64,000 nucleotides of DNA from positions 1 to 64,000 of the forward strand of contig MU271279.1 in assembly GCA_021432655.1 (NCBI GenBank). The letters run 5' to 3'. Positions 12,325 to 48,721 of this stretch are shown in pieces. Below the pieces are notes generated by a model. It searched no databases. It was not told where the DNA came from and saw only the letters and a program-made list of their open reading frames with translations. Each line of letters opens with the position of its first letter. Position 1 is the first letter of the stretch. Both the position numbers and the translations under genes were made by a program. The DNA is from Atractiella rhizophila (taxonomy: Eukaryota).

Positions 12325-13755
12325 CGTACGCACGAGCTAGATACCAATTCTTTGGGGGCGAAATTTCTAACTGATGGTGCTTTTAAACAAGTCCAAGATT
12401 TCGGCAGGAATGGTGCAAGGGAGCCAGAGAATTGTGGGACCGGGTAGATGTTGTGATAAAACACGTGACAAATACGCAGCATGATATTTCAGTGTCACAT
12501 GCTACGTAGGCTTCAATATTGAGAACCTGGAGGCTCTAATAATGACCGCTCCAAACCGCTCACGACAGTTTGCAAATTTACGACACCTCTACCTTGACTC
12601 GGCAAGGATATGGACTGACCATCGGAGTCACCCGCTTGACTGTTGGCTTTTACCATGGCGAATGCAATCTCGGGACATTGGAATTTCAGTCATTCTCCAG
12701 AATCAAGTGACCACTCGGTTACGAGCGCTGACAAGATATTTGGATGTAGAACCTGAAATCCTGGATTTGCTATATGTCCTGATTTTCATCGCCAGTCACT
12801 TGCCCCGTCGCCTGCTCACCAAGATTGAAGCATCGTTATAGGAAATACAGGAATTTGCATCGCCTGGGAAGGCCTATTAAAGACATGTTCCCATTTGGGT
12901 ATCCTAAAGGTTCTTCTCATTCTTTGACTAAGGTATACGGCGGACGTCAATCAAGTGGCGATTTGCTTCAGTGCCATTCGTTCCTTTACGAGGCTTGGAA
13001 AATGCTGGGAATGGATGCGTTTCCTCCACCACTGCACTTCTTCTTCCTCCTTCTGCTAGAAGCATGCTGGGGGAGTTCTCTTCTACTCTTTTGATTTCCT
13101 GGTATGTGCTACTTTTGGGCTGATCGACTTATTTGTTAATTTACGTGCCAACGAAAGTACGGCGAATTGTGTAACGTTCAACCCGATTCTAGATATCTGG
13201 ATATCTCAGAAACGCTCTAGTTCTTCGACACAAAGTCGACTTTTTGACTGCTTCAGCTGTACACCAGATACTTGCCGCTAAGCAATATTCTACAAAGAAA
13301 GAAGACATGATGGCAGAGATACGGCAGAGTTACTTGCAAGGCTTGCCACGAATGGGTTGTCAAGTATAGCTTGGGCATTTAATTGTTCAGCTGCTTTCGG
13401 ACGCACGTTTGACATGGTACTGGCCGAATTGTTCGGCAAGATTGGACCGGTTCCCTTCTTACAGTATCTTGATCGAATCAAGCTGAATTAAGAAAGGTCA
13501 GGACCTCAGACCGACTAGCACGGGCCACCAATGAGCTCCAGGCATATTTGTTTATCTACCTTGTATCTACGACATTTGCATCTTGCAGCAGGTCACAGAA
13601 CCACTTATGATCATTCAGCCCGATTCAGCCCGATTCAGCCCGAAGGACCAAAATTGTGGCCTTGCTATTTACCTTTTAAGCGCGATTGTGTGTCAGACGC
13701 CTCTCCTCTTCAGACGAGTTGGACAGTCGGACGCCAGCGCATCAACTATTTCACT

Positions 13756-15965
13756 ATGACCACCATCTCTACTATTCAAATTCATGGTGCCGTCCTTGTC
13801 GAAGATGTCAAATCGGGAGCTTCTTCACCAGCCCCTAGTCTCCACAGTACGATTGCAGAGGACGTTCCAGACTTTGCTCTAGAGGAAGGCAAGCATAGGG
13901 AAGAGTCGGAAAATGACGCGATTGGCGCAATAGAGCTGCACGAAGTAGCAGCGACGCCGCCATTGGATGTCATGCCTCCGGTGACCTTCAGGAAGTTGAC
14001 CGTCAAAGATCGCACGAACAGCTTCTTGTCCTTGTTTAAAATGTCTCTGAAAGAAGTTGCTGGATACTTAACGTGTGCGTTCTCCTCCTCCTTAAACAGA
14101 TTCTGCTCCTTACGGATGGCTTGCTTCGAAGTCATCGTCGCAGGATGGTCCGACGCTACTTCAGGTTAGTTTAGCTCCATGTTTAGGAAGCGCTGTTCTG
14201 ATAAGTGCAATAGGTGTCCTGATTCCTTAGTAAGGCTAATCCCCTCTCTTTTGATTAGTGCTGATTGACGGCGCTGCACAACCATGGAGAGGTACTTTGG
14301 CATTGGATACATGGCCGTCAGTTGCCTATTTGTCGGCCAGTTTTTAGGCTTCTTTCTGGCCTCATTGACGAGCACGTATCTTATGGATCGACTTGGCCTC
14401 GGCAAAGGTTGGGTCATTCTATCTTGCTGTTCATTGAAGCTAACACTAGGATGAAATGTACAGTTATCGTCCTTGGTGCGGTTAGTCAAATGGCAGCCTA
14501 TTTATTCATGTTTCCGCCTATCAACTTCCCTGTCCTTGCTAGCGCCTACATACTTTCAGGCATGTCCCTCTAGACTTCTACTCTACCTTGGGTTTGCTCA
14601 GCTGTATTCAAGGTTTTGGACTTGCGTTGCAAAATGCTAGCACGTCTTCGTTTATCGCGGGTACGACTCATGATACTACCTTTGTCTCCAGCTAACAATT
14701 TCTCTCGTAGGTTTGCCGGATGTGGCCTGGAAAATGGTACAGTTTTTTTCTCCTTTCACCATCTTTTGTAACCCGAAGCAAACTAGGGACTGCTACATTC
14801 CTTCTATGGCTTGGGAGGCGTGATCAGTCCTTTGGTTGCGACTGCTTTTGTCTCTTCAGGAATCAAATTCAGCTACTTCTACCTTATTACTTTAGGTACA
14901 CTGTCGCATGTGGTATACCGATGGTCTCTCATATACAGGTGTAGGTGTGTGCGCTATGAACGTTGCACTCCTCGTCCATGCTTTTCGGTTCGTCCTCTGT
15001 CCCTTGGTGTAAAGCACACATCTGAGTTTCTCTAGGTTGAAACCTGAACCTCTGCCTGCAAACTACGTTCACGAGCGGCCTGGGGATCAGCTGAAGAAAA
15101 TTTTGGTGAATAAAAATGTCTGGTTTATCTCGTTATTTATCATTGTCTACGTTGGAGCGGAAGTCTCTATGGGAGGTGCGTATAGTTCTCGCTTCTCCTT
15201 GGTAGATAATTTATCATCGCGTTAGGTTGGATAGTCTCCTTTATTATCCGCCAAAGGGGAGGAGGTGCAAGTTCTGGTTACATCGCAACGGGTAATTACA
15301 GCTATCCCTACTGCGCTTTTCCAAGCTAACAAGATGTGACTAGGTTTCTTCTCAGGTTTGACTGGCCACATTGACTGGGCTACACACTCATCGTCGCCTT
15401 ATTTGTAGGGCTCGCATTGGGGCGACTTCTATGCCCCAGATTCAACACGTACGTGGGAGAAAAGAGAGTTGTCTATCTCTATCTTGGCGTCGGCGCTGCT
15501 CTTCAGTTTATCATATGGTTCGTTCCATCAATCGAGGGCAACGCTGTTGCTGTAGGACTAGTCGGTTTTGTCTTGGTATGGGACAAGCGCTTGTACATCT
15601 TGCTCCGTCTTACCTGTGCTTCCAGGGACCACTGTATCCAAATGCCATGTCGCTGACAGTCAAGATCTTTCCTAGGAGCCTTCACCACGTGAGCGTCCTT
15701 TTTCTCTCGTACGGGCTCTCCTAACTTTCGAGTACAGGGTTGTATAGGCTTCATGAACTCTTTAGGACAGAGCGGGGCTGCTATCTTTCGTGAGTTTGGT
15801 GCGCGTTTCGAGAGAATTAAACTGACACTTGTAGCAGCATTCATCACTGGTGTCCTTGCCCAAAAGTACTCGGTGAATGTCTTGCCACCCGTCGAACTCG
15901 CTCTTTTTGCGACAATGACAGTTCTTTGGTCCTTCGTCCCCAATCCGGAGAGGAGGAGCGAGTAA
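13756..15965 (+). CDS. MFS transporter (Bsc6/fucose-permease-like), copy 1, many short exons
   Basis: AGWSDATSG, MERYFGIGYMAVSCLFVGQFLGF, YGLGGVISPLVAT, FIIVYVGAEVSMGG, GLALGRL and SLGQSGAAIF; many hydrophobic segments. Confidence 0.88.
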
Positions 15966-16135
15966 GGGCTCTATTCCACCTGCTTTCCTCAAAGATATTC
16001 TCGCGCGCAACAGAAATTTGGGTTTTTGTCGTCTTTCTGGGTATTTCAGCTCAGACAATTAAATAGACTCATGAAGCGATTCAGTTTTGGGCAACCGTGT
16101 TTGTAGAATCATAGTGGTGTGCAGATATAGGACAA

Positions 16136-17258
16136 TTAGCAGACATTGCAATCCGTGACAATAAACTTCGACGTTTTCTGCCCAAAAATGTGTCATTTTC
16201 AGTGGACTTTAGAAACGGAGCTAGCTTACCCATCTCCTCAGCGCATCAGTGATCTTGATTCCCGAAACAATCTCCCCAATGGCGACTGCCATTCACCTCG
16301 TGAACTCGTCCCTAGCCTAATAAAACATACGAACCGTATGCGAACTCCTCCGCGGTTTCGCTATCCGATGTTTCTCCATCTGAGATGAAGAACGCATTAT
16401 CTGGGTCAGAATCCATCAACTATTCGACTTTAAGCAGGATGCAAGATTTGAAGCGTACTGGAGATCCGATCCCCATCCCTTGCTATCTGGAAAAACACGA
16501 GCCCTCTCTTCCGAGAGGGGTCGTACACCTCTGGCGCTTGCAGGATCTTCTCGTTGGCCCATTTTGAATGAGCTTCTGTCGGAAAACTATGACACACAAT
16601 GTCACAACAACTTTGACCTTTATTGCTCAGAGATGGAGACGCACTGACAGACTAGTGCATGCTTGGAGATCGCAGCTGAATTTAGCCTTCAAGTGTGAAG
16701 AGAATGAGATTCGAAGCTGGAGCATGTTAGAATAACGAAAAGAACCCATACCGAGCTCCTACGTAGCGCTTTTGGGAGACGAGCTCCCTAAAATGCGCCT
16801 GTACCACAAGTGATCTTTAAGTATATGTAGCTCGATGGAATGGAGTCCTTACAGCGACTTTCGGTGCGCCGGCGTCAAAAGGTTTGATGACCACCTTCCA
16901 TGCCATAGGTCACAAAACTATCAGCCTTGGTGAAGAGCTAACACTGACCTTCATTGTTGTAGAAGTCACTGAGTTCTCGACGAGTGCGATGTCGAAGATG
17001 CAAACGGGATCTACGCAGTCTCAATCAGACGAAGAACTATGCAACACAAGGAAGAAAGAGAGACAAACGGTGAGCTTTAGATGACACGATCCCACCATCT
17101 CCGTTCAGATGCTTGCTCATAAGTTCATTGTTAGCCAACAGCGCCTTCCTCAGTTCCGCTATCTCTTGCCTCAGATCCTTGATCTCATTGGCTTGTGCCC
17201 CAGAGCTGACTTCTAGTTTGGACAGACGATTTTTGAGACTCGCTACTTCTGTATCCAT
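16136..17258 (-). CDS. Coiled-coil + divergent cyclophilin-fold protein, copy 1 (9 exons, about 225 aa)
   Basis: Spliced reading: MDTEVASLKNRLSKLEV...HPVCIFDIAL...VVIKPFDAGAPKVAAHFRELVSQKRYVGARL...RGLVFF...NAFFIS...YVAIGEIVSGIKITDALRRWKTSKFIVTDCNVC*. This follows the cyclophilin pattern PTVFFDIA / VPKTAENFRAL / SQFFI / VVFGKV.EG / KTSKKITIADC. All introns are GT..AG. Confidence 0.8.
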
Positions 17259-17657
17259 GCTGTTGCACACAATTGACGGGTTGAGGTAACAATGGTCCTC
17301 GTTCTGGAGGGGAGCAAACCAACAGGCCACGAAGTACACTCAGTAAACCAAGTGTCGTTCTTCCGGCAGTGCACAGAGCGAGCAGTAAGGTACACTGAAA
17401 GCCAATTGCTGAGGGTCACGTGTCGTACATAAGGTGTTGCAGGGAATGTAGCATGAAAGCCTGGGAAAAAAGGTCATGGAATTCGAACGATTTGCTCGCT
17501 TTTAAGAGGAAGTACAGCTTCTTAACAAAGATCATGATGACGGCCGACAAATAGCTACGGAGAGCACAATTTCAGAAAATCTTTGATAAGACGACGACAA
17601 GAATGAGGAAATAACTACGATCCAGAAATTAGAATGCAAAAGTTCAGAGGGAATAAA

Positions 17658-20534
17658 TCAGTTAAGGGAATAGCAGAGGGATTGGAGGTCGCTGACGATA
17701 TTCTTGGGAGGATGTTTCGAGCTATTTATCCAACTAGTTCATGATCGTCAGGTCCACCAGCTCAAAGGAGGAAAAAGGAAACAAGCTCACGATATAGCGT
17801 TGACATGATCCGCCAACAGAGCCGGCGTCTTCTTTTCAGCTTTGAAAAAATAGTTTCATCCTCTGCTTCCTCATCAACAAATCCACCTCCAAACCAAACA
17901 GCACCATCCTCCTTCGTCTGAACATCGGACGAATCCAATATCGACTCGTTGAGGCACCTCAAGATGTCCAAGCACCTTTGACACACAGGCACTCGACATG
18001 CCATCTGGGCGGCATGCTTTCACCTGGATGCGTGGGGAATTTTGGCATGATCCGTTGAACGAGGCTGAGGATGGATTTGACGAGATCGGTTTTGAGGGTG
18101 AGTTTCCGTTTGAAGGATGGTTTGGAGAGGAAGATGAAGTTGAACATGGAGATGGTGAGGAACTCAAGGGTCACGATACCTGATTCGAAGGCAGGAACGA
18201 CCGTCAGGGAATCTTCTTGGATCGGAATGTAGAATTTGAGCCTGTCTATGACATCCTCCACCTTTGCCGAATCGAGCGCGCCGCAATGACTTCCCGGTTT
18301 GGATCTTTGGTCGAAATCTTTGCCAAAGCAAGTAAGGCGATTTTCGGTAGCATAACTGAGCCTATGGATCGGTGGACCATTTGCACCAGCACCAGCACCT
18401 CCCTTCTCCTTCCCTCTCCCCTATCCATCCCTCATCCAACTCGTTCGTCAAGTCCAAAAACCAGCTCAAAAGTTCCACCACGGCATCGGCTACCCAACCA
18501 TTTGTCGTCGTCAACTCGACATCCAACCCCACAGACGAGAAGATGAACGCCACGTCCTTCCGAATCGTCAGGAGATCCGACACTTTCAGATCGAGATCTA
18601 CTCCTCCTCCCACCTGCTTTTGCACGTTTCGCCGTAAAGTTTGCTTCGAGGATACAAGGTCTGAGAAGAAGTTCGGCGAATCGAGGGAGGGAGGCGCAAA
18701 ATCGACCCACGTCCTCTGCTGTCGTGACGTTGCGAAAGAAATTGAGGATGGCGAGGACGGTTTCCACTCGTCCAAGAGAATACGACACGTCCTTCTTCTT
18801 TCCCTTTGAATCTAATAACCTCACGCTTTCCTCCTCTCCCATCCTCTTCAGTCTCCCAAAGCTTCTCCCCCTCCACTCCTCCCACGCATACCTCTTCTCC
18901 CTCTCCTTCCCCTTCCCACCAGCCAAGCCAACCATCTCACTCCCCAAACACTCATCCAACAAATCCAACAACTCCTCTCACCCAAATCCTCACACTGATG
19001 CAACGGAAACGGCACCGAGCCCTCCGTGCCCATACTCATCCCCAAGCTCTGCAACACATTCAAAGCATACGTGACCTCATGGGCCATCCGACTCTTCAAG
19101 CTCATCGTCAACGAATGGATGTCCACCACCCCAAAGTTCTCCCCTTCCAACCCAGTCCTCGGCGGTCGAACCTTGTTCGTCAACGCGTCCAACGCGCGCA
19201 GTTCCCATCCGCCAACCGCGGTGGTCGTGCGCGTCAAATGGTTGTATGTCACCCTATATCGTTTTTTCGGTCGCACAGGCTCAGGCTCTTCCAGCGCCGT
19301 CGACGGACGTTTGGTCGTCACGGATGGAGAGGAGGCGAGGGGGGAACGGAGGGCGAGTTTTCTGGCGCTTTTGCTTTTGAATCGGGTGGAAGAGAAGGAA
19401 GGAGGAGGAGGAGACGGTTTGGGTGCTGGCTCTGTGGTTGATGGTGGAGGTGGGATTGGGAGGATCGATTCTTTTTGAGACTCTGGGGCGGAAGGGATCG
19501 CGGGAGCTTCTGGCGTTTTTTCTCCATTGATGTCGATGGAACGGCGGTTGGGGGCGTTGGGGGTTTTGCGGTCGCTGGAGCTGTAGGAGTTGGGGTGGGA
19601 AGGAGGTTGAGCGCTGTCGGTGTCTCTGGGACAGGAGCGAGGGGAGGCGTTTCAGCCGTTCCACTTCCATGTGACCCCCGCCCTCCGCAAATTGGTATGG
19701 GTCTTCTCCAACCCCAAAAGGTACTTCGCATACACCTGAACCACCATTCAAGATCAATATCAAGCATCATCCGTCCGTCCCTTCACAGACACCACACACG
19801 GACCAACAAGCAGGGATGGAAGAAAAGGACGTACCTCGACCAACGCCTTCACGCCGACCTCGTCCTTCCTAACCTGCATCATCTGACACACCGTCGGCCA
19901 AGCGCCATTCTTGGTCAACATCGCGCTTCCGCCGCCCATGATCCTCACGATCGCATACAGCGTCCCAATCTCGACCTCCTGCGCGCCCTCGCCTCCCACA
20001 CCGAGCGGCGCACGCTCTATCCCATGCTGTTTCCTCACATGGTCTCCCGCGATCTTGCGCAACTGGATCATCTGCGCCTGCTTCTGCGGCGTCAGACCCA
20101 AGCCTGCCCATCCACCTCCTCCCGCTGGCTTCGTCCCGTTCACGGTCGCGGTTCCGTTTGCAGATGTTGCGGTTGCGGTTGCGGTTGCGGTTTGGGAGTG
20201 CAGTTGCTGTGCTTGTTGAGCGCGTAGACGCATTGAAGCGCGGCGAGGGCGGTCTTATGTCTTTCCTTTTCTTGTTGAGACATGGTCAGGAACGAGTTCG
20301 TGTCGAGTCCTTGTGAGCGGAGGTAGTCGGCCATGAGTTGTTGGAGCTGTTGTTGAGCTGCCAGCTGTGCGTTTTGTTGCGTTACAGATTGGGATTGAGG
20401 TTGGGGAGGTTGGGATGGAGGTGCAGGAGAAGAAGTAGATGAGAGTACTTTTGTTGGTGCTGGTATGAGAGAAGAAGGATGTGATGGAGGTGCTGATAGC
20501 GGGAGCGGTGAAGCAGACCCTGCCTGAGACGCTA
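17658..20534 (-). CDS. SWI1: SWI1/ARID protein, copy 1; 5'-truncated at the gap, with several frameshifts (likely sequencing errors)
   Basis: Near-identical to 27193-30085 but broken into several ORFs by 1-3 nt indels, often in homopolymers. Confidence 0.7.
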
Positions 20535-20559
20535 NNNNNNNNNNNNNNNNNNNNNNNNN
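20535..20559. other. Assembly gap (25 N)
   Basis: Run of 25 n in the sequence. Confidence 1.
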
Positions 20560-20797
20560 AAGCCATTTTCCTCTAAAAACGTTTCTCGGGCTTCTGAAAA
20601 CTTCCCCTCGTCGAGCAGCTGCACGAGATTGGAGATCCAAGATTGCGCAACATGGCTAAACGCGATTCTAACGTTGGGAGCAAGTGGTTTAGATGTTGGG
20701 AGCGGCGGCACGGGAGCGTCGATAGGCTTTGTCGTAACTGAGGGCAGGGACCTGTTGAAATTCAGCTGGCATGAAACATGTCGATCAACACTCACAT
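20560..20797 (-). CDS. FMO 5' fragment, second allele copy, truncated by the gap
   Basis: Matches 12087-12324 (SLPSVTTKPIDAPVPPLPTSKPLAPNVRIAF). Confidence 0.85.
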
Positions 20798-21039
20798 CTT
20801 ACGCTCGAGTTAGATACCAATTGGTTGGGGGCGAAATTTCTAACTGATGGTGGTTTTTAGCTTAGCAGGCCCAAGGTTTCGGCAGAGATGGTGCAAGGGA
20901 GGCATCGAATTGTGGGACGGGTAGATGTTGTGATAAAACACGTGCCGTGCTAAATATGTTGAGCAAATTCAGAGGCGGCGTCAGAAAACAGAAAACGTCA
21001 GGTAAGGTGAGTCGCAAGATATTTCAGTGTAACAGCCTA

Positions 21040-22780
21040 CGGTAGGATCTGCTCCCCTTTGCCTTCAAGTTTGTGACCTTGAAACCAAGTTTTTACTAGG
21101 ACCGTAATCCACTTATTGATCTCCCAGGTTGTTTCCCGGCGACCAAGGTCGAGATCCTCGCACACATTTCCGAATTCGCTTACCCTCCATACTTTTGCCC
21201 TATAGATATGATGTTGTGGGCAACTCGAGTTGGACATACCTGATCGTCAGCGTCTTCTGGCTTCCCATGCCCTGATCTGCAAAGGCTTGGAAGCACGCTG
21301 CTCGACGCACCGCTTTACACTCCATCCGGTTTACTTCTGCGAAAAGCTAGGTGCAGCAATTCAGAAGATTTTGCTACAACGGTCATGCTGCGGACTTCTT
21401 AGATGCCTCGTCATCGACTATTCTTTTTGAAGGGCTCACGGATTAGTTTCAGATCAGCTCCCGTCGTCATACATTAGACAGATCTGAAAGACAAGAAGGC
21501 CTCGGGTAACCAGTTATCTGCTCAATCTGGCCTAACTTCGGTACCAGTCACAATGCAGACGAGAGAGTTATCAATCCTGGAGTGAAACTTCCGTAGAGAA
21601 CCTGGAGGCTCTAATGGCCGCTCACGACACCTCTACCTTGACTAGGTAAAATGCACCAAAACTGCTTGCAAAGGGCTGTGGCCCAAGTTGCCTCTCAAAT
21701 CTTTGAGCCTGACCTACATGCATCTTCACCCCACGCTTCCAAAGGACATTTCTAATTCAATGGTGGCATCTTCACTTAGAAACCTCCTTATCTGCGCCGC
21801 CTTTGCAGAAAATGAACATAGGACCCATCAAGCGAAGATTGACTTTTCAAAATTTGTCAACCAACACGGATCCACATCTCCGGCGTTTCTTGGTGGTCTC
21901 TTTATATGCAAGAAGATATGGCTACCATCGGAGCCACCCCCCGAGGAAGCTTGATTGTTGGCTTTGACCTTCATCCGGATGTCTTCATTGAAGCTGCTGA
22001 GGGATTGTGTGCCAGTATCTGTCCCACTTGTCGGCTTCAGATCACCCGCACAGAGCTCCATTCAAATCTTTGACTAAAGATTCTCTGATATCTGCGGTCT
22101 GACGATTTATGTTGACAACCTAGTACTTGTTCGGCGACCCAACATATTGTATTCGGCTCCAATTCACGTTTCTACTGTTGTCCAAAAGCTACCACGGCGA
22201 AGGCCACCTCGGGACATTGGAATTTTAGACTTTCTCCAGAAACAGGTATCCACTCAGTTACGAGTGCTGACTAGATATTTGGATGCAGAACCTGAAATCC
22301 CGGATTTACTATCTCTGATTTTTCATCGCTAGACTCTCGCCCGTCGCCTACTCACCAAGATTAAAGCATCGTTATAGGAATAGAGGAATTTGTATCACCT
22401 GAGGAAGGCCTATCAAAGAAATATTCCCATCTAAGGATCCTAAACATTGTTCTCATTCTTGACAAAGGTGTACGGCAGCCGTCAATCAAATGGCCCTTTG
22501 CTTCAGTGCCATCTCCTTCCTTTACGGGGCTTGGAAGATGCCGGGGCTAGGTGCGTTCCCTCCACCTATGCGCTTCCTCTTCCTCCTTATGCTAGAAGCA
22601 CGCTGGCAGAGTCCTCTTCTACGCTTTCATTTCCTGGTATATGCTACTTTTGGGCCAATCGACTTATTAGCTAACTTACGTGTCAACGAAAGTACAGCAG
22701 AGTGCAGAATGGTGTAACGTTCAAATAGATTCTGCGGAAACTCTCTAGCTCTTCGACACAGAGTAGACTTTTGACTGCTT
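21040..22780 (+). pseudogene. Degenerate LRR-like gene remnant; a deleted version lies at about 12500-13250
   Basis: Short broken ORFs with LRR-like pieces (LPLKSLSLTYMHL, SLRNLLIC; NLRHLYLD in the other copy) and many stops. The two copies differ by large indels and high divergence. Confidence 0.35.
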
Positions 22781-23287
22781 CAGCAGTATACCTGATTAAT
22801 GCCTGCCGTTAAGCAATATTCTACAGAAAACTCTAAGGAAATATGATCATGGCGGGGACACCGCAGAGATACATGCAAGGGTGGTTTGCCACGAATGGGT
22901 TGTAGAGTATAGCTTTGGGCATTTAATTGTTCAGCTGCTTTCGGACGCACGTTGAGGAGGTACGGGCCGAATTGTTCGGCAAGATTAGACGGGTTCCCTT
23001 CTTACGATATCTTGATCGAATCAAGCTGAATCAAGAATGGCCAGGACCTCAGACCGACTAGCACGGGCCGCCAACGAGCTCCAGGCATATTTGTTTATCA
23101 ACCCTATATCTACAACGGCGCATCTTGCAGCAGGTCACAGAACCACTTAAGACCATTCAGCCCGATTCAGCCCGAAGGACCAAATTTGTGGCCTTGTTAT
23201 TTACCTTTTAAGAGCGATTGTGTGTCAGCCGCCTCTCCTCTTCAGACGAGTTGGACAGTCGGACGCTAACGCTTCAACTATTTCACT

Positions 23288-25489
23288 ATGACCACCATCT
23301 CTACTATTCAAATTCATGGTACCGTCCTTGTCGAAGATGTCAAATCGGGAGCTTCTTCACCAGCCCCTAGTCTCCACAGTACGATTGCAGAGGACGTTCC
23401 AGACTTTGCTCTGGAGGAAGGCAAGCAAAGGGAAGAGCCGGAAAATGACGTGATTGGCGCAATAGAGCTGCATGAAGTAGCAGCGACGCCGCCATTGGAT
23501 GTTATACCTCCTGTGACCTTCAAGAAGTTGACCGTCAAAGATCGCACCAACAGCTTCTTGTCCTTGTTTAAAATGTCTATTAAGGAAGTTGCTGGATACT
23601 TAACGTGTGCGTTTCCCTCCTCCTTGAACGGATTCTACCCCTAACTGGCTTGCTTCGAAGTCATCGTCGCGGGCTGGTCCGACGCTACTTCAGGTTAGTT
23701 TAGCTCTATGTTTAGGAATGGCTGTACTGATAAGTGCAATAGGTGTCCTGATCCCTTAGTAAGGCCAATCCCCTCTCTTCTGATTAGTGCTGATTGACGG
23801 CGCTGCACAAGCATGGAGAGGTACTTTGGCATTGGATACATGGCCGTCAGTTGCCTGTTTGTCGGCCAGTTTTTAGGCTTCTTTCTGGCTTCATTGACGA
23901 GCACATATCTTATGGACCGACTTGGACTCGGCAAAGGTTGGGTCATTCTATCTTGCTGTCATTGAAGCTAACACTAGGATGAACCAGTTATCGTCCTTGG
24001 TGCGGTTAGTCAAATGGCAGCCTATTTATTCATGTTTCCGCCTATCAACTTCCCTGTCCTTGCTAGCGCCTACATACTTTCAGGCATGTCCCTCTAGACT
24101 TCTACTCTACCTTGGGTTTGCTCAGCTGTATTCAAGGTTTTGGACTTGCGTTGCAAAATGCTAGCACGTCTTCGTTTATCGCGGGTACGACTCATGATAC
24201 TACCTTTGTCTCCAGCTAACAATTTCTCTCGTAGGTTTGCCGGATGTGGCCTGGAAAATGGTACAGTTTTTTTCTCCTTTCACCATCTTTTGTAACCCGA
24301 AGCAAACTAGGGACTGCTACATTCCTTCTATGGCTTGGGAGGCGTGATCAGTCCTTTGGTTGCGACTGCTTTTGTCTCTTCAGGAATCAAATTCAGCTAC
24401 TTCTACCTTATTACTTTAGGTACACTGTCGCATGTGGTATACCGATGGTCTCTCATATACAGGTGTAGGTGTGTGCGCTATGAACGTTGCACTCCTCGTC
24501 CATGCTTTTCGGTTCGTCCTCTGTCCCTTGGTGTAAAGCACACATCTGAGTTTCTCTAGGTTGAAACCTGAACCTCTGCCTGCAAACTACGTTCACGAGC
24601 GGCCTGGGGATCAGCTGAAGAAAATTTTGGTGAATAAAAATGTCTGGTTTATCTCGTTATTTATCATTGTCTACGTTGGAGCGGAAGTCTCTATGGGAGG
24701 TGCGTATAGTTCTCGCTTCTCCTTGGTAGATAATTTATCATCGCGTTAGGTTGGATAGTCTCCTTTATTATCCGCCAAAGGGGAGGAGGTGCAGGTTCTG
24801 GTTACATCGCAACCGGTAATTACAGCTATCCCTACTGCGCTTTTCCAAGCTAACAAGATGTGACTAGGTTTCTTCTCAGGTTTGACTGGCCACATTGACT
24901 GGCTACACACTCATCGTCGCCTTATTTGTAGGGCTCGCATTGGGGCGACTTCTATGCCCCAGATTCAACACGTACGTGGGAGAAAAGAGAGTTGTCTATC
25001 TCTATCTTGGCGTCGGCGCTGCTCTTCAGTTTATCATATGGTTCGTTCCATCAATCGAGGGCAACGCTGTTGCTGTAGGACTAGTCGGTTTTGTCTTGGT
25101 ATGGGACAAGCGCTTGTACATCTTGCTCCGTCTAACCTGTGCTTCCAGGGACCACTGTATCCAAATGCCATGTCGCTGACAGTCAAGATCTTTCCGAGGA
25201 GCCTTCACCACGTGAGCGTCCTTCTTCTCTCGTACGAGCTCTCCTAACTTTCGAGTACAGGGTTGTATAGGCTTCATGAACTCTTTAGGACAGAGCGGGG
25301 CTGCTATCTTTCGTGAGTTTGGTGCGCGTTTCGAGAGAATTGAAACTGACACTTGGAGCAGCATTCATCACTGGTGTCCTTGCCCAAAAGTACTCGGTGA
25401 ATGTCTTGCCACCCGTCGAACTCGCTCTTTTTGCGACAATGACAGTTCTTTGGTCCTTCGTCCCCAATCCGGAGAGGAGGAGCGAGTAA
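23288..25489 (+). CDS. MFS transporter, copy 2 (second allele; small indels near 23640 and 23985)
   Basis: Near-identical to 13756-15965. Confidence 0.8.
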
Positions 25490-25668
25490 GGCTCTATTCC
25501 ACCTGCTTTCCTCAAAGATATTCTCGCGCGCAACAGAAATTTGGGTTTTGTGTCGTCTTTCTGGGTACTTCAGCTCATTGTGTCACAACAATTAAATAGA
25601 CTCATGAAGCGATTGAGTTGTGGGAAACCGTGTTTGTAGAATCGTAGTGGTGTGCAGATACGGGACAA

Positions 25669-26793
25669 TTAGCAGACATTGCAATCCGTGACAATAAACT
25701 TCGACGTTTTCTGCCCAAAAATGTGTCATTTTCAGTGGACTTTAGAAACGGAGCTAGCTTACCCATCTCCTCAGCGCATCAGTGATCTTGATTCCCGAAA
25801 CAATCTCCCCAATGGCGACTGCCATTCACCTCGTGAACTCGTCCCTAGCCTAATAAAACATACGAACCGTATGCGAACTCCTCCGCGGTTTCGCTATCCG
25901 ACGTTTCTCCATCTGAGATGAAGAACGCATTATCTGGGTCAGAATCCATCAACTATTCGACTTTAAGCAGGATGCAAGATTTGAAGCGTACTGGAGATCC
26001 GATCCCCATCCCTAGCGATCTGGAAAAATACGAGTCCTCTCTTCCGAGAGGGGTCGTACACCTCTGGCGCTTGCAGGATCTTCTCGTTGGCCCATTTTGA
26101 ATGAGCTTCTGTCGGAAAACTATGACACACAATGTCACAACAACTTTGACCTTTATTGCTCAGAGATGGAGACGCACTGACAGACCAGTGCGTGCTTGGA
26201 GATCGCCGCTGAATTTAGCCTTCAGGTGTGAGAGAATGAGATTCGAAGCTGGAGCATGGTAGAATAATGAACAGAACCCATACCGAGCTCCTACATAGCG
26301 CTTTTGGGAGACGAGCTCCCTAAAATGCGCCTGCACCACAACTGATCTTTAGGCACATGTATGTCTCGCTGGAATAGAGTCACTTACCGCGACCTTAGGT
26401 GCGCCAGCGTCAAAAGGTTTGATGACCACCTTCCATGCCATAGGTCACAAAACTACTAGCCTTGGTGAAGAGCCAACACTGACCTTCATTGTTGTAGAAG
26501 TCACTGAGTTCTCGACGAGTGCGATGTCGAAGATGCAAACGGGATCTACGCAGTCTCAATCAGACGAAGAACTATGCAACACAAGGAAGAAAGAGAGACA
26601 AACGGTGAGCTTTAGATGACACGATCCCACCATCTCCGTTCAGATGCTTGCTCATAAGTTCATTGTTAGCCAACAGCGCCTTCCTCAGTTCCGCTATCTC
26701 TTGCCTCAGATCCTTGATCTCATTGGCTTGTGCCCCAGAGCTGACTTCTAGTTTGGACAGACGATTTTTGAGACTCGCTACTTCTGTATCCAT
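25669..26793 (-). CDS. Coiled-coil + divergent cyclophilin-fold protein, copy 2
   Basis: Same exon structure as copy 1 (exon 1 26793-26604, intron 26603-26546). The exonic differences I compared between the copies are synonymous. Confidence 0.82.
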
Positions 26794-27192
26794 GCTGTTG
26801 CACACAATTGACGGGTTGAGGTAACAATAGTCCTCGTTCTGGAGGGGAGCAAACCAACAGGCCACGAAGTACACTCAGTAAACCAAGTGTCGTTCTTCCG
26901 GCAGTGCACAGAGCGAGCAGTAAGGTACACTGAAAGCCAATTGCTGAGGGTCACGTGTCGTACATAAGGTGTTGCAGGGAATGCAGCATGAAAGCCTGGG
27001 AAAAAAGGTCATGGAATTCGAACGATTTGCTCGCTTTTAAGAGGAAGTACAACTTCTTAACAAAGATCATGATGACGGCCGACAAATAGCTACGGAGAGC
27101 ACAATTTCAGAAAATCTTTGATAAGACGACGACAAGAATGAGGAAATAACTACGATCCAGAAATTAGAATGCAAAAGTTCAGAGGGAATAAA

Positions 27193-30100
27193 TCAGTTAA
27201 GGGAATAGCAGAGGGATTGGAGGTCGCTGACGATATTCTTGGGAGGATGCTTCGAACTATTTATCCAACTAGTTCATGATCGTCAGGTCCACCAGCTCAA
27301 AGGAGGAAAAAGGAAACAAGCTCACGATATAGCGTTGACATGATCCGCCAACAGAGCCGGCGTCTTCTTTTCAGCTTTGAAAATAGTTTCATCCTCTGCT
27401 TCCTCATCAACAAATCCACCTCCAAACCAAACAGCACCATCCTCCTTCGTCTGAACATCGGACGAATCCGATATCGACTCGTTGAGGCACCTCAAGATGT
27501 CCAAGCACCTTTGACACACAGGCACTCGACATGCCATCTGGGGCGGCATGCTTTCACCTGGATGCGTGGGGAATTTTGGCATGATCCGTTGAACGAGGCT
27601 GAGGATGGATTTGACGAGATCGGTTTTGAGGGTGAGTTTCCGTTTGAGGGATGGTTTGGAGAGGAAGATGAAGTTGAACATGGAGATGGTGAGGAACTCG
27701 AGGGTCACGATACCTGATTCGAAGGCAGGAACGACCGTCAGGGAATCTTCTTGGATCGGAATGTAGAATTTGAGCCTGTCTATGACATCCTCCACCTTTG
27801 CCGAATCGAGCGCGGCCGCAATGACTTCCCGGTTTGGATCTTTGGTCGAAATCTTTGCCAAAGCAAGTAAGGCGATTTCGGTAGCATAACTGAGCCTATG
27901 GATCGGTGGACCATTTGCACCAGCACCAGCACCTCCCTTCTCCTTCCCTCTCCCCATCCACCCCTCATCCAACTCGTTCGTCAAGTCCAAAAACCAGCTC
28001 AAAAGTTCCACCACGGCATCGGCCACCCAACCATTTGTGGTCGTCAACTCAACATCCAACCCCACAGACGAGAAGATGAACGCCACGTCCTTCCGAATCG
28101 TCAGGAGATCCGACACTTTCAGATCGAGATCTACTCCTCCTCCGCCTGCTTTAGCACGTTTCGCCGCAAAGTTTGCTTCGAGGATACAAGGTCTGAGAAG
28201 AAGTTCGGCGAATCGAGGGAGGGAGGCGCAAAATCGACCCACGTCCTCTGCTGTCGTGACGTTGCGAAAGAAATTGAGGATGGCGAGGACGGTTTCCACT
28301 CGTCCAAGAGAATACGACACGTCCTTCTTCTTTCCCTTTGAATCTAATAACCTCACGCTTTCCTCCTCTCCCATCCTCTTCAGTCTCCCAAAGCTTCTCC
28401 CCCTCCACTCCTCCCACGCATACCTCTTCTCCCTCTCCTTCCCCTTCCCACCAGCCAAGCCAACCATCTCACTCCCCAAACACTCATCCAACAAATCCAA
28501 CAACTCCTCACCCAAATCCTCACACTGATGCAACGGAAACGGCACCGAGCCCTCCGTGCCCATACTCATCCCCAAGCTCTGCAACACATTCAAAGCATAC
28601 GTGACCTCATGGGCCATCCGACTCTTCAAGCTCATCGTCAACGAATGGATGTCCACCACCCCAAAGTTCTCCCCTTCCAACCCAGTCCTCGGCGGTCGAA
28701 CCTTGTTCGTCAACGCGTCCAACGCGCGCAGTTCCCATCCGCCAACCGCGGTGGTCGTGCGCGTCAAATGGTTGTATGTCACCCTATATCGTTTTTTCGG
28801 TCGCACAGGCTCAGGCTCTTCCAGCGCCGTCGACGGACGTTTGGCCGTCACGGATGGAGAGGAGGCGAGGGGGGGGACGGAGGGCGAGTTTTCTGGCGCT
28901 TTTGCTTTTGAATCGGTTGGAAGAGAAGGTGGAGGAGGAGGAGACGGTTTCGGTGCTGGCTCTGTGGTTGATGGCGGAGGTGGGATTGGGAGGATCGATT
29001 CTTTTTGAGACTCTGGGGCGGAAGGGATTGCGGGAGCTTCTGGCGTGTTCTCCATTGACGCCGATGGAACGGCGGCTGGCGGCGTTGGGGGTTTTGCGGT
29101 CGCTGGAGCTGTAGGAGTCGGGGTGGGAAGGAGGTTGAGCGCTGTTGGTGTCTCTGGGACAGGAGCGAGGGGAGGCGTTTCAGCCGTTCCACTTCCATGT
29201 GACCCCGCCCTCCGCAAATTGGTATGGGTCTTCTCCAACCCCAAAAGGTACTTCGCATACACCTGTACCACCATTCAAGATCAACATCAAGGATCATCCG
29301 TCCGTCCCTTCACAGACACCACACACGGACCAGACAAGCAGGGATGGAAGAAAAGGACGTACCTCGACCAACGCCTTCACGCCGACCTCGTCCTTCCTAA
29401 CCTGCATCATCTGACACACCGTCGGCCAAGCGCCATTCTTGGTCAACATCGCGCTTCCGCCGCCCATGATCCTCACGATCGCATACAGCGTCCCAATCTC
29501 GACCTCCTGCGCACCCTCCCCTCCCACACCGAGCGGCGCACGCTCTATCCCATGCTGTTTCCTCACATGGTCTCCCGCGATCTTGCGCAACTGGATCATC
29601 TGCGCCTGCTTCTGCGGCGTCAGACCCAAGCCCGCCCATCCACCTCCTCCCGCTGGCTTCGTCCCATTCACGGTCGCGGTTCCGTTTGCAGATGTTGCGG
29701 TTGCGGTTGCGGTTGTTGCGGTTGCGGTTGCGGTTGCGGTTTGGGAGTGTAGCTGCTGCGCTTGTTGAGCGCGTAGACGCATCTGAAGCGCGGCGAGGGC
29801 GGTCTTATGTCTTTCCTTTTCTTGTTGAGACATGGTCAGGAACGAATTGGTGTCGAGTCCTTGTGAGCGGAGGTAGTCGGCCATGAGTTGTTGGAGCTGT
29901 TGTTGAGCTGCCAACTGTGCATTTTGTTGCGTTACAGATTGAGATTGAGGTTGCGAAGGTTGGGATGGAGGTGCAGGAGAAGAAGTAGATGGGAGTACTT
30001 TTGTTGGTGCAGGTATGAGAGACGAAGGATGTGATGTGGGAGGTACTGATAGCGGGAGAGGTGAAGCAGACCCTGCCTGAGACGCCAACAAGCTGAGAGC

Positions 30101-30637
30101 GTCCGTCCCAGGTGCGCCGCCATGGAGAGAGTTGGGCGGCAACGAGTCCTGCCTCTCGTTCTTGATTCCGTTGGCCAAAGGTGATGGCGACGGAGCGGAG
30201 GCAGAACTCGGCTGTAACAGGCCCATACCGATACCGTTAGGATGTGAGGCGGGTCGCGGAGGTTGGGAGAGGACGGAGAGGTGGTTGAAGAAGCTCAACT
30301 TGTCCTTTCCTTCTCTTTCGAGGGAGAAGGAGGATGCGGGACGGGCGGGATGGGATGCGGAGGGAGAAGCGGAGGCGAAGAGGTTGGAGAAGTCGTGACT
30401 GTGTCCGTTGGTGAGGCCTGTCATGTGTGGCAGGGGAGCGACGGCTGAAGAGGACGTTGAGGGCTGGGTGGAGGGGGAGGAAGAGGGTATCCATGGCGTG
30501 TGTGGGTTGGAGAGGGAGGGTTCTCCGAGACCTCCGATGCCTGCGCCGTTCAACCATGGGAGTTGCTGGGCGGAAGAGGATGTGCCGTTCTGCGCTGGTG
30601 GGACTGGTGGTGCGGAAGGGGAAGAAGACGCGAACAT
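27193..30637 (-). CDS. SWI1: SWI/SNF subunit Swi1/Sol1 (ARID1-like)
   Basis: Low-complexity P/S/Q N-terminus; ARID domain (EIGTLYAIVRIMGGG...AWPTVC...VYAKYLLGLE); BAF250_C-like VDIHSLTMSLKSRMAHEVTYALNVL. Introns lie near 29265-29360 and 27270-27325. Confidence 0.8.
29696..29741. repeat. (GCGGTT)n coding microsatellite (Thr-Ala repeat in SWI1)
   Basis: gttgcg repeats; the array is longer here than at about 20166-20192 in the other copy. Confidence 0.9.
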
Positions 30638-36214: not shown

Positions 36215-37585
36215 ATGGCGGAAGAGAATAATACTAATGCAGGTGGAAACGCGGCGTCGATGCGACCGGTTCAAGGTACGCACTTTTTCTCGCACTGGGG
36301 GTGGAAAGCGGGTATTGGTTTGCTGGGATGGACTGTGCTGATGTCTTGTCCTATCATTTGTTCTATGTTTCACTACGCGTCCGATGCTGCTCTCGATTGG
36401 CGTGCGGCAATGTTTGCTGGCATGACGTGCTCTTGGTGTCACAGTCAAACTTGTCCTCCTCGGTTCGTCTCCTCTTCTCCCTTTGTGCGCGCCGGTGTAG
36501 AGAGCTGAGACTGTGACACAATGTAGGTGAAGCTGCAGTCGGAAAGTCATCTCTTGTCCTGCGGTTTTGCCAGGACGACTTTCAAGCGAATAAAGAGCCC
36601 ACCATTGGAGCAGCCTTGTACATCCTGCCCCCATCCCGATCCCTCTCTCGTCAGATGTTGACTGTGCTATAGTCTTACCCAGAAATGTCGACTGGAGGAT
36701 AAGGTGATCAAGTTCGAGATCTGGGATACGGCAGGACAGGAGCGCTTTCATTCCTTGGCACCGATGTATTATGTTTGTCTTCCTTTTCTTCTACCCCAGC
36801 CAAGTAGGGTTGCTGAATGAGAGGCGCGTATAGAGGAATGCGGCTGCAAGCTTGGTTGTTTATGACGTTACCAAATCGGTATGTTTCATTGTGTCTGCTC
36901 CGTGGATTTCGTGGATTGATGGCTGATTCAATTGCGGTGCAGGGTTCATTAGAGAAGGCTAAATCGTGGGTAAAGGAACTTCAGAGACAAGCCAACCCCA
37001 AGTCCGTTCCCTCCCTGCCATCGGTCTTGGTCTAACATCAACAACAATATGAAGCATCGTCATTGCACTCTGTGGTAACAAGCTCGACCTTGTCCAAGGA
37101 TCTACAGAAGGATCTCCAGACGCTGGAGAAGGCGGAGCGCACAACTCAGCAGCTGCCTCCGACGACGATGAAACTGCCACCGCTACTCCCGACGCACCGA
37201 ACGATGCTCAAGGAGACGCAGTGACTGATGGGTGGAAAGCTAGCAGGGAGGTAGAGAAGGATGAAGCAGCCGCATATGCGGAAGAGAACGGGTTGCTCTT
37301 CTTTGAGACTTCCGCGAAGACGGGAGAGGGAGTCATGGAGGTTTTCACTGAAATCGGTTAGCCAATCCTTCCTGTCTCCTATTTCATAATCTGTTGGCTG
37401 ACGTTGGTTTCTGGATAGCGAAAAAGATTCCCCTTGAACACATCCTTTCTTCTTCCCGTGGTGGACGCGGAACGACAGGTAGAGCAGGAGGAGCAGCCAC
37501 GGCTGCGGCAGGTGCTGGAGGAGATGGACGAATCAAAGTTGGGGAGGAGACGCCAGAGCAGAAGAAGAATGCTTGCGGCTGTTAA
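36215..37585 (+). CDS. Rab5-family GTPase (Vps21/Ypt52-like)
   Basis: Spliced [52 protein letters not shown] and ETSAKTG; C-terminal CGC prenylation motif. Confidence 0.93.
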
Positions 37586-37942
37586 TCTCCATTCTCTGTT
37601 TCTACCCCAGCTCTTTCTCCACCCGGCAATTGGCCACGGAATGAACGACATGCCCTCCTTCGATTCAGATTCACACTCAGTACCTCTCCCTTTCTTTCTG
37701 CTGAGATCTCTTGCGTGTAGACTAACTATTAATACCTTCATGGGGAGGAGACGCCAGAGCAGAAGAAGAATGCTTGCGGCTGTTAATCTCTATTCTCTCT
37801 GTTTCTACCCCACCTCTTTCTCCACCTGGCAATTGGCCACGGAATGGACGACATGCCCTCCTTCGATTCAGATTCACACTCAGTACCTCTCCCTTTCTTT
37901 CTGCTGAGATCTCTTGCGTGTAGACTAACTATTAATACCTTC
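37540..37942. repeat. About 201-bp direct tandem repeat (2 copies) covering the Rab5 C-terminus and 3' UTR
   Basis: tggggaggagacgccagagc...attaataccttc at 37540-37739 and again at 37741-37942, with a few substitutions and a 2-nt indel. Confidence 0.95.
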
Positions 37943-38195: not shown

Positions 38196-40404
38196 TTACG
38201 ATTGCTCTGCTGCAGGTTTTGGTTCTGAAATTGACGAAGGGAACACTTTATAAGGTGAGAGTATACCTAGCAAAGTGTGTCACTAGTTATGCCATGGTGA
38301 AAGAAATGGGATGAACATACTTTTAGGATCGAATATCTTCTTGATCATACGCATCCGGTCGACAGTGCTCGCCTCCTGCGAGTACTCAATAAACGGGGCT
38401 TTTTGTAATCCGAGTCCATGTTCAGCGGATATCGATCTTATCGCCTCGTCAGTTTATCGAGGAGAACAGACGGAGAAAGCTGTACCCTCGCTGCCGTGAA
38501 GTCTCTTCAAATACCCAAGGCTCCATAATCTCCTCGATTTTGGGGTCATAACGACTAGCAATGACGTTCTATCGCATCAAAACACAATTCAGTCTTGTTT
38601 CTTCTCTACAAGATGGAGAAAGAGCACAAGGGAAGACAAACCAAATGAATATTCCCATCTCCCACATGTCCAAACCCAATACACCGCCTAATGACATCGT
38701 CTCCCAAACCATGTTCCTTAAACCGCTTTCTCATCTTCTCCACCACACTGTACATCTCCCGGACGGGCAGCGACAGGTCGTACTTGTACACCTTACCCAA
38801 CTTGGCACCATTCTCAGCTATTGATTCTCTGATCGCCCACAGCTGTTGCAATTGGGTTTCGTCTGCCGCTACAACTCCATTGGTAATTAATTCTTCTGTC
38901 ATGAGCGATTCAAGGTGATCTTGCAATTTCTGCATCCCAGCGTTAGAACTCTTGACTACGAGTGTTGGAACGGAAATCACTTCATCGTCATGTTCCTTCC
39001 TGCTCCCACTCGTCTCAATCAAAATATAAAATCCCTCTTTGGCCGCATCATCTTGTTCGAACGGTGCTCTCATGTCTGAGAAAGTTTGTACGATATCGAG
39101 GGAGTCGGGATCAAAAAACTCAAAGGCGCTCAAAATCTCGGACAGGGATGACTTTGTGCGTATGAACACCTTTAGGAGATCTTCCCAGCTCGAGACAGAG
39201 AGGAGGGCAACTCCTGTTGACTGTTTGGATGATTAGGTTGCACTATCGAAACGGATTAGCAGAAACGGACCTTGGGACGCTGAGGAGCCAGGATGCAAGC
39301 GCCAGTTACAATTCCGAGTGTACCTTCGGCACCAATGAAGAGTTGCTTGAGGTCGTAACCTATTACCATAGCACACCATCAGCCACTCGTTCCATAGATC
39401 CACGCTTTTACTAGAGAAGTTAAAGTTATACCAGTATTATCCTTGCGCAATCCACCCATCCCCATTCTCAACACAGTACCCTCCTCATCAGGCAACACAA
39501 CTTCCAATCCTAACACATTCCCGTGCAATGATCCATAGCGGAGGAGACGTAGCCCGCCGGCATTCGTGGAGATGTTACCACCAATTTGACACCTGAAGCG
39601 GAGAGAGTTTAGAGCTGGAGCGTGAGAAGAGGGAAGACTGACGAGCCCTTCGCGCCTAGATCGAGGCTGAATTCTTACGTGAGGAATATAATGAAGAGGA
39701 AAAGAGGGCGACGCACGGGAAGATGTAGCCTTTGGCTGCTAGGTAGTCGTCTACATTCTGCAGCACACACCCAGCATCGAGCGTAATCACGCCTGTTTGT
39801 CTTCCCTCAGGCTAACTCTTCTGCACCAAAGGAGGCCGTACCAGATACCTCATCGAATGATCGGATGGTGTTCATCCCGCTCAGATTGAGGACTAGCTCG
39901 TCATGCACTGGCACACTGCCGCCTACCAAGCCAGTGTTCCCGCCTTGCGGTACTCTGTTTACCACATCATCATCAGAGAAGCAAGAAAGGAGAAGGACAC
40001 AAACACGGCAATGTTTTGTTTGTAGCAATACGCAAGCAGCTTTGAGACTTCCTCTGTTCTCTTAGGGCGGACAACAGCAACTGAGTCCAACAATCACCTT
40101 CCCTTCCTCATAAATCCATCAAAAACAACACACCGCTTCTCCCCTTGTACTTCCCCATCCAATCCTCATTATATCCACCCAGTTCTACTTCTTCCACTTC
40201 CTTCCAACCAGCCTCATCGACTGCTGCAGGTTTTAGAGACGTGATCACATTTGAGTCTGGATTCGAGATCACGCTTCGGAAGAATGTTATGTCTCCCGCG
40301 TCGAGGGTCTTATACTGCTTCTTGCGCGGTGGAACTGTTGAGTTCCAGCGTTTTGAAGCTCTGGAAAGCTGCAAAAGTTGCTGAGGCAGTCGAAATGGTC
40401 GCAT
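38196..40404 (-). CDS. DLD2: Mitochondrial FAD-linked D-2-hydroxyacid dehydrogenase (D-lactate / D-2-hydroxyglutarate)
   Basis: Presequence [77 protein letters not shown] and [11 protein letters not shown]. Confidence 0.93.
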
Positions 40405-40487
40405 CTCTCAACTTCTATCAAGTGGTCCAGACACACAAACTCAACAACGAACCCGTCTTTATATTTTATATTGATTTCTGTACAAAT

Positions 40488-41847
40488 ATGCAATGGCCCA
40501 TATCCTTCGCACGATCAGAAGACGCAATCCCTCAGCCGGGTCCACGATCTGCGTCTCAATATTCCTCCACGAGCATGACACTATTAACCGAGACTGGGCG
40601 CCAACTAACGCGACCAAGCCACATCGAGTGGATGAATGATCGCTACAACGGGAAGAGGTGTATTTTTACACAATGGATTGCTGGCGTGCACTGGTGCCAC
40701 GTATTGGAGGCGAGAGATGTCATATCGGCGCGTTGTCTGGTCCAAGGCGGGAACGGTTATTGTATTGAATAGCAATTTGGGATGGACAGGGTAGCGCGTT
40801 GAGCAGGCTCAACTTGGTGTCAGCGGATTTCCTAAGAGAAGGATATCTGAACCTGTTCCCTTCGCTACTCAAGTACCACTTTGACAATGGCATGTTGGGC
40901 TTTCTGCCCAATATCGAAGTTTTACAATTCCTGGTTCTTATTGAGGAAGGACATCGGCGATTTCGCGAGGATTCCATCTCGAGGGGGCATCCAGATCCTG
41001 GCAGAATGCCCTATTCGTCATTTTACGGAACATTCGAAGGCTCTGGCACATATTACGACGTATATTTCAAGAGGCGCATAGTCGACTTTGAGCGTGTCTT
41101 TAGAGTCCTCGATCGCAAGCTTTGTTATACCGACTCCGGAGCACCCATAGGCGACGATGCCTTCCCTCAACTCAAGTTATATCTTGCTTTAACAGTCGTA
41201 ATCTGGATTCAAGCAGAACGTCTGAACAGGACGTTCAGTAGTGCCACGGCCGACCCATTTGTTGGTTTTTCTTTTTATGCAGCTGGAAACTGAGTGCGTA
41301 TTTAGTTCAACGTGTCACTAGCCATTTATCTGAAGGATTTATGGATGGCTCCGCTGATGGGCGCCTGTTGAACTCCCAGCGACCAACCTCTCTTCCGCCT
41401 CAAGGAGTCTGGCCATATACTACAACTGCACCAGACTTGACTTTATTCACAGGATCCACAGGAGCCACAGCAACAAATCCCCATCCTCCCAATCCTCCAG
41501 GCTCATCCCAATTTTCTGTTCCGATTTGGACTTTGCCTGAATTTGATTTCCAAGAACTGCCCGCAGAGGAACGATACGTGGGAATGACGACGGAAGAAGC
41601 TGTGTCGCGTGAGCTTGCGAGGAGGGGAATGACAACGACAGTACCTTCTGGAAACTTAATCCATGCGTGGCAAATGAAGACAGAATGTTTATCGCCGGTG
41701 AAAAATGTATGGTACCGACTTTCTCACCAGACTCGTGACTTATCAAGACCGTTTCTTTGCAAGCATTTACACCCTACAATTAATGTCGGATTACAACTTC
41801 CTCACAACATTGCGGGAAGGTATAGATATACGAAACAGCCTGTATGA
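40488..41847 (+). CDS. Hypothetical protein with degenerate HNH_2-like nuclease motifs, copy 1
   Basis: RYNGKRCIFTQWIAGVHWCHVL followed by NLFPSLLKYHFDNGMLGFLP resembles the C..T....H / N..L....H..FD.G...F.P pattern of fungal HNH_2 proteins. The exon structure is uncertain. Confidence 0.4.
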
Positions 41848-41849
41848 TG

Positions 41850-44300: not shown

Positions 44301-45087
44301 ACCCCGGTTGAGGTCATGGAGAAATTAGGAGAGATGAGGAGGGAGTACGACGAAGAGTTGGAACTTCAAGTGGAAACTACCGAGGTTTGAAGATCTGGAT
44401 AGACAACTTAGGCTCCATGAAGAACCGTCACGACTCTTACTCGACTCAACCCAGTAATTTCCACCCTCGACGAAAAGATCTCTCTTACGGTTATCCTGGA
44501 GCAGCATCTACCAACCTTTGAATCCTCCTGGTTCTCCGACACGAATGGACGAAGCAAGAAGCAAGAAATCCTTGGACCACCGATCAACGAATACGCTTAC
44601 AGTTAACGAAACGGACGATTTCCTTACGGAGAAGACATCGCAGAGTGGTTCAGGAGCGAGTAAAGCAGACCCGTAGGAACACACCGCTCAGGGAGGCGAT
44701 GGAACGCAACCTCACACCTGTAGGACGAATTTAGACGGAAAAGTGAAAATGGAAGAGCCATCCATTGGGAAGAACAATGAAGAAGAGGAGCTCATTGAGA
44801 TGAGGTAGATTACGGAAGAGCAACGACTAGCATTGCACTGAAAACGGCAACTCTCAGTCCTCATATGGAATACCTCCTAGAACTATCCATATCGTACGTC
44901 TCTTCCTCCCACATATACGCCGAAATCTGCTCGAGCGTACAAACGGGACTCTCAGAAAGCCGAAAGCAACAGCATACGGACCCCTCCTGAACTTTCTCTC
45001 CGTTAGGCACCGGCAGGAACCGAAACGTATCTCAACCGTGAAGCATCCTAATTCGAAGTACTTCGAGGAGAAAAACCTCCAACATGA

Positions 45088-48696: not shown

Positions 48697-48721
48697 NNNN
48701 NNNNNNNNNNNNNNNNNNNNN
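48697..48721. other. Assembly gap (25 N)
   Basis: Run of 25 n in the sequence. Confidence 1.

Follow-up and report, generated by a model that had tools for sequence, protein, structure and literature searches.

We have identified in Atractiella rhizophila a spliced nine-exon gene, under purifying selection and with two paralogues in the same genome, whose product carries an N-terminal heptad helix ahead of a cyclophilin fold from which most of the active-site residues have been lost, and which has intron positions in common with the cyclophilin A gene of the same organism. We propose, with a probability of about 0.55, that this protein (P0003) is a pseudo-enzyme adaptor that descends from cyclophilin A and works as an oligomer; both the adaptor role and the oligomer are read from its anatomy only. 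The gene lies in a window of 64,000 nucleotides, the whole stretch of DNA that was analysed (contig MU271279.1, positions 1 to 64,000). A. rhizophila is a root-dwelling basidiomycete of the Pucciniomycotina.

The gene occupies positions 25669-26793 of the minus strand. Removal of its eight GT..AG introns, which are 49-64 nt long, leaves an open frame of 224 amino acids followed by a stop codon (Table 1), so that the nine-exon gene of the original prediction, which had been made from the DNA letters, was recovered in full. Splicing was examined in contigs of four of the 15 listed public runs (X1-X4). X3 is recorded as RNA (a root metatranscriptome), X1 and X2 are presumed to be RNA, and X4 reaches the 3' flank only. 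Seven of the eight introns (1, 2, 3, 4, 5, 6 and 8) were found joined at the modelled sites in these contigs, the junction of intron 2 being present only in X2 and that of intron 8 only in X1; the support for intron 7 is a 14-letter loose end in an X3 contig, which is equal to 25805-25818 at the start of exon 8. Intron 2 (26430-26483) sits five codons 5' of the corresponding intron of cyclophilin A and of the paralogue P0004 and has an identical 6 letters at both of its ends, and an intron shift or gain is possible at this site. The gene had also been described as hidden, which does not hold as far as annotation is concerned: a search with exon 6 returned an identical 224-amino acid protein already present at NCBI, as an A. 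rhizophila hypothetical protein with two accessions/locus tags and no assigned function. Convergent with the P0003 gene is a spliced gene at about 23270-25500 (plus strand) with frames that by eye are those of a transporter-like membrane protein, and run contigs from that side extend to 25654-25688, into the exon 9 region.

Table 1. Features of the P0003 gene and of its second copy (positions in the window; intron positions in human cyclophilin A numbering)
Feature	Position	Strand	Description
Exon 1	26604..26793	-	Start codon, heptad coiled-coil helix (residues ~1-51), short linker; present in contigs of runs X1, X2 and X3
Exon 2	26484..26545	-	First strands of the cyclophilin barrel; from gene model, run contigs and predicted structure
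Exon 3	26388..26429	-	Strand 2, beginning of helix 1; next intron at host cyclophilin A position 34, phase 0
Exon 4	26284..26330	-	Helix 1; Tyr corresponding to Y48
Exon 5	26178..26219	-	Ex-catalytic hairpin; in the ungapped register R55=Ser117, F60=Lys122, M61=His123, Q63=Leu125; next intron at cyclophilin A position 66, phase 2
Exon 6	25992..26119	-	Remodelled 67-95 loop and strand 5; next intron at cyclophilin A position 109, phase 1
Exon 7	25868..25933	-	Phe175 (=F113, kept), acidic Trp-free loop, H126=Tyr192; next intron at cyclophilin A position 127, phase 1
Exon 8	25763..25818	-	Strand 7 and helix 2; from gene model, run contigs and predicted structure
Exon 9	25669..25710	-	Final strand and stop codon; from gene model, run contigs and predicted structure
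Second copy	16136..17258	-	Nine matching exons, same protein sequence; other haplotype in the most likely reading
Scaffold gap, 25 N	20535..20559	.	Junction of both tandem copies

Two more genes of the same build were found in the genome. They encode P0004 (323 aa; contigs C219 and C805) and P0005 (264 aa; G000:C82:74217-75159, where one copy was found), which are 32% and 31% identical to P0003, and the intron counts of the three genes are eight for P0003, five for P0004 and two for P0005. No relatives were detected outside A. rhizophila by searches of a kind that could miss very divergent or unannotated homologues: a phmmer search of 1.84 billion representatives returned 3 matches, all from A. 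rhizophila, a word-index search with P0003 gave a single match (itself) among 705 candidates, and the same search with a profile of the three sequences gave 3 matches among 7999 scored, again all from A. rhizophila. A metagenome scan that yielded five loci out of 170 candidates was discarded as chance matches, all five being coproporphyrinogen oxidases. The family consists of three lineage-restricted paralogues, so far in one species.

The spliced protein had been predicted to adopt a cyclophilin fold, and this was confirmed by several methods. P0003 matched the Pfam family PF00160 over residues 83-215 with 24.1 bits (cut-off 21.7), and P0004 matched it with 42.4 bits; P0005 gave no match to PF00160 at E values up to 1. 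An AlphaFold2 model, generated from the three sequences without templates, has a helix (residues 2-51) joined through a disordered linker to a barrel domain rich in strands, at low confidence (pLDDT 57.7, pTM 0.44). When this model of P0003 was submitted to Foldseek, cyclophilins were retrieved at E ~1e-6 with a probability of 1.00, and nearly all top rows among the matches listed were titled cyclophilin. A VIA search of 48161 chains returned 33 chains with Z values of 9.7-12.4 over residues ~61-224, after which the next fell to 7.7; the top match had a Z of 12.4 and an rmsd of 3.2 with 146 aligned. The Atlas model agrees with a cyclophilin fold as well (TM 0.75), and Atlas clusters without a name scored up to 0.94 but had just 113-150 of 256 features in common, and are treated as leads only. 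At the level of the single sequence, a phmmer search of the PDB with P0003 found no match below E 0.2, and structural homologues were reached with the three-sequence profile.

The predicted coiled coil of about 50 residues was likewise recovered, as a heptad helix spanning residues 1-51, on the basis of both the heptads and the predicted helix. Hydrophobic residues occupy 11 of 15 a/d places in P0003, 15 of 18 in P0004 and 11 of 14 in P0005. In the helix of P0003 the a places are mostly Ile or Val and the d places mostly Leu, a combination which in coiled coils favours the parallel dimer, and the sequence therefore suggests that P0003 may pair in this manner. The sequence of P0003 was inspected for a signal-peptide-like or membrane stretch and none was seen.

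Nine residues make up the cyclophilin active site, namely R55, F60, M61, Q63, A101, F113, W121, L122 and H126, according to the accessible part of PMC2911226, and the accessible part of PMC13162259 gives an identical set with the addition of G72. Tyr110-Phe129 of P0003 aligns without gaps to Y48-F67 of host cyclophilin A, and the automatic alignment moves the register of the 115-129 region relative to this ungapped one. Since residues 115-129 of P0003 contain neither Arg nor Gln, the loss of R55 and Q63 is independent of the register chosen. In the ungapped register the R55 position is occupied by Ser117 in P0003 and by Pro and Thr in the paralogues. Altogether, six of the nine site residues are replaced in P0003 (R55, F60, M61, Q63, W121 and L122); F113 is kept as Phe175, H126 corresponds to Tyr192, and the state of A101 hinges on gap placement. 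The loop at residues 177-191 is acidic and has neither Trp nor His, and cyclosporin binding depends on a Trp or His at position 121. P0004 and P0005 are likewise without R55, Q63 and W121. The original prediction had listed R55, Q63, W121 and H126 as absent, and for the first three residues our observations fully support it. H126 is indeed absent, being replaced by Tyr192, but this change alone is no proof of inactivation because two of the 12 host cyclophilins have Tyr at 126 and retain R55. We infer from established cyclophilin chemistry that both PPIase activity and cyclosporin binding would have been lost.

The genome gave 29 Pfam matches, from which 12 distinct host cyclophilin genes were modelled with our own spliced aligner, second copies being left out; the gene labels used here are our assignments from sequence motifs. 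The host gene which we take to be cyclophilin A (G000:C1051, C275) has five domain introns, at 25/0, 34/0, 66/2, 109/1 and 127/1 (human numbering/phase). By automatic alignment, P0003 has the introns at 34, 109 and 127 in common with it, P0004 those at 25, 34 and 127, and P0005 that at 127. The family as a whole thus matches four of the five positions by automatic alignment, and the fifth (66/2) is matched by P0003 and P0004 in the ungapped Y48-F67 register. Among the other 11 host cyclophilins, whose models, as those of all host cyclophilins, may lack introns at their ends, 10 have none of the cyclophilin A intron positions and one has a single position in common. The probability of four of five introns agreeing by chance is ~3e-7 if sites are assumed to be uniform, an assumption that makes the case look somewhat stronger than it is.

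Protein comparisons were less clear. The identity of P0003 to host cyclophilin A is 24%, the highest among the 12 modelled host cyclophilins, and in protein trees the family had a long branch and no settled place. A clade made up solely of the family and cyclophilin A was weakly rejected by the AU test (p of 0.042 and 0.032) and a grouping with the PPIL3-like gene was not rejected (0.13 and 0.08), long branches making such tests unreliable; the family profile scored 22.5 bits with a cyclophilin B-like gene, just over the 21.3 bits with cyclophilin A. Weighing the introns above the protein trees, we consider it highly probable that the family descends from host cyclophilin A. Two other host cyclophilins were observed to have unusual features: in L018 (G000:C213) the R55 position is taken by Lys and the tail is rich in Lys, Arg and Ser, so that by its sequence it is possibly another low-activity cyclophilin, and L006 (G000:C138) has a long insert after the first strand and a Lys aligned at W121.

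The case for purifying selection had initially been made by comparison with a second copy of the gene (Table 1). The two copies sit in blocks (12087-20532 and 20560-30085) that are 92-95% identical, non-coding DNA included. In all likelihood the second copy is the other haplotype, that is an allele and not a paralogue; a true tandem paralogue was judged less likely in view of the 25-N gap at the junction and the block-wide identity. Since every difference in the exons is synonymous, the argument for constraint holds even with a probable allele. In the exons the copies differ at 13 of 675 bases (13 of 13 synonymous) and in the introns at 15 of 450; given 156 synonymous and 516 non-synonymous sites the neutral chance of this outcome is ~6e-9, in agreement with the purifying selection first proposed. 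Of eight variants seen in run contigs six are synonymous and the remaining two fall in the coiled coil, and the two copies of P0004 differ at 8 of 323 codons, with 7 of the 8 changes synonymous.

Doubling of this kind was observed elsewhere in the assembly. Within the same blocks, an ARID-domain gene (27322-30637, minus strand; a weak Pfam match) shows 31 synonymous and 11 non-synonymous codon differences between the blocks, and the 650-codon frame of its partial copy (~17800-20532) contains 11 indels of 1-2 nt; these are probably sequence errors near a contig end in one of two alleles under constraint, and not signs of a pseudogene. A second tandem pair in the window (39461-48696 and 48722-57435) is 93-94% identical and meets at a 25-N gap (48697-48721), probably the same haplotype signature as in the first pair. 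On C82, a Dsc3 gene present twice (L070:5804-8274) and adjoining a 25-N gap (8730-8754) suggests an assembly duplication, and many host cyclophilin genes are present twice, on different contigs. Tandem duplications that meet at 25-N gaps in this assembly are thus probably haplotypes, and findings that rest on them need care.

Neither shared synteny nor an immune cluster was found around the paralogues, the 74 frames scanned having matched housekeeping families only. Within the window we also noted an uninterrupted 341-codon frame (58893-59918, plus strand) that matches dihydroorotate dehydrogenase and is unusual beside its intron-rich neighbours, as well as tandem doublets of exact period at 37540-37942 and 52472-52665 (~200 and 97 nt), 97-99% identical.

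Among known proteins, cyclophilin A (the PPIA group, host gene included) has in common with the family the barrel fold and four to five of five intron positions; P0003 differs from it by the replaced residues, by remodelled 67-95 and 115-125 loops and by the added coiled coil. The host has separate genes which, from their motifs, we take to resemble PPIL2, PPIL4 and SDCCAG10, so that P0003 is not an orthologue of these proteins. The accessible part of PMC2911226 describes human PPIL2, PPIL6, SDCCAG10 and PPIL4 as having cyclophilin domains without isomerase activity on standard substrates, and ties this mainly to position 121, and in PPIL4 to R55; P0003 resembles them in its cyclophilin domain, and its predicted inactivity follows from the replacement of six of nine site residues. 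In TRIMCyp, cyclophilin A domains that bind weakly gain avidity through oligomerisation (PMC4936896, accessible part). P0003 resembles TRIMCyp in that a cyclophilin A-derived domain is carried on a coiled coil, which is oligomerising in TRIMCyp and predicted to be so in P0003, but P0003 has no RING or B-box (by Pfam, and its helix begins at residue 2), has lost the pocket, retained introns at its origin and is fungal. The cyclophilin-fold subunits of the mitoribosome, the radial spoke and doublet microtubules were among the best fold matches, at Z 11-12.4 on a par with ordinary cyclophilins; in these subunits the domain works inside a larger assembly, and their likeness to P0003 is one of fold at 15-20% identity. 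Inactive cyclophilins and a cyclophilin A borne on a coiled coil were thus both already known, and what is new here is the two same-build paralogues. A literature search, covering main texts and mostly papers outside subscription, found no paper that combines A. rhizophila and cyclophilin and none that describes this architecture, and the word 'coiled' is absent from the accessible parts of a survey of 16 fungal cyclophilin repertoires (PMC1618848) and of PMC13162259.

Other functions can be envisaged for such a protein. The barrel could have been reused as an enzyme or a ligand-binding domain, with Cys67, His100, Cys127, His134, Trp137, Asn172 and Cys224 forming a new site for a small molecule or a metal. 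All three paralogues, at ~30% identity, have these seven residues in common, His100 and Cys127 stand where 12 of 12 host cyclophilins have Asn and Gly, and KslB (titled Pictet-Spenglerase; Z 11.2) and McbB (Z 10.9) are cases in which the fold serves other chemistry. We nevertheless regard such a site as unlikely: only three sequences are compared, most of the invariant columns are usual cyclophilin core positions, and the ex-active-site face varies between the paralogues. It is rather improbable, too, that the proteins are dimeric receptors, arisen from cyclophilin A duplicates, in which a new Cys/His/Trp site senses a repeating foreign or symbiosis-related ligand, which would be a convergence on the design of TRIMCyp minus its enzyme pocket. 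A sensor closer to TRIMCyp itself, whose coiled coil would lend avidity to cyclophilin A-derived domains recognising a repeating foreign surface, for instance the capsid of a mycovirus or a retrotransposon, seems very unlikely. The logic of its parts is like that of TRIMCyp, and the family is duplicated and lineage-restricted; yet Pfam finds no RING, B-box or effector domain, the capsid-binding proline pocket is gone, variation is nearly all synonymous and not diversifying, and all three genes are flanked by housekeeping genes.

A regulator that competes with host cyclophilin A, binding the same clients or docking sites without turnover and so tuning isomerisation, would fit the likely cyclophilin A descent, and inactive human cyclophilins still bind proline peptide (PMC2911226, accessible part). 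The proline pocket of P0003 is, however, far more changed than in those human proteins, F60, M61 and L122 having become polar or charged, and because it is so altered, clients in common with cyclophilin A are improbable; we hold this reading to be quite unlikely. Our estimate is the same for a weak isomerase or holdase chaperone that works with replacement residues: F113 and the barrel are kept, the Pfam cut-off is passed and Arg114 lies three places ahead of the R55 position, but R55 is described as the invariant catalytic residue, PPIL4, which has no R55, is inactive on standard substrates (PMC2911226, accessible part), Q63, F60, M61 and W121 are also gone, and Arg114 is not conserved in P0004. 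As for a decaying, functionless duplicate, the low identity of 24% to host cyclophilin A and the lack of relatives found beyond one species would agree with it, but the nine-exon frame is intact, the contigs are spliced and there are three intact paralogues; with 13 of 13 differences synonymous this explanation is largely refuted, and we consider it extremely improbable.

We therefore return to the pseudo-enzyme adaptor as the preferred reading of P0003. In the proposed course of events, a duplicate of the cyclophilin A gene would have given rise to the three lineage-restricted paralogues, having gained an N-terminal coiled coil and lost the prolyl-isomerase and cyclosporin site, and the barrel would have been retained under purifying selection. 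The protein would be soluble and intracellular, its coiled coil would hold two (or three) chains together, and their barrels, paired in this way, may bind a protein partner through their remodelled surface, with avidity arising from the pairing.

The reach of the finding is limited to a family seen so far in one species and without an assigned role. In the known inactive human cyclophilins one or two changes in the site are implicated, whereas the P0003 family has lost nearly the whole site. Since the parent gene is still legible from the intron positions, the family offers a clean case of a housekeeping enzyme that would have been turned into a binding module by duplication and fusion.
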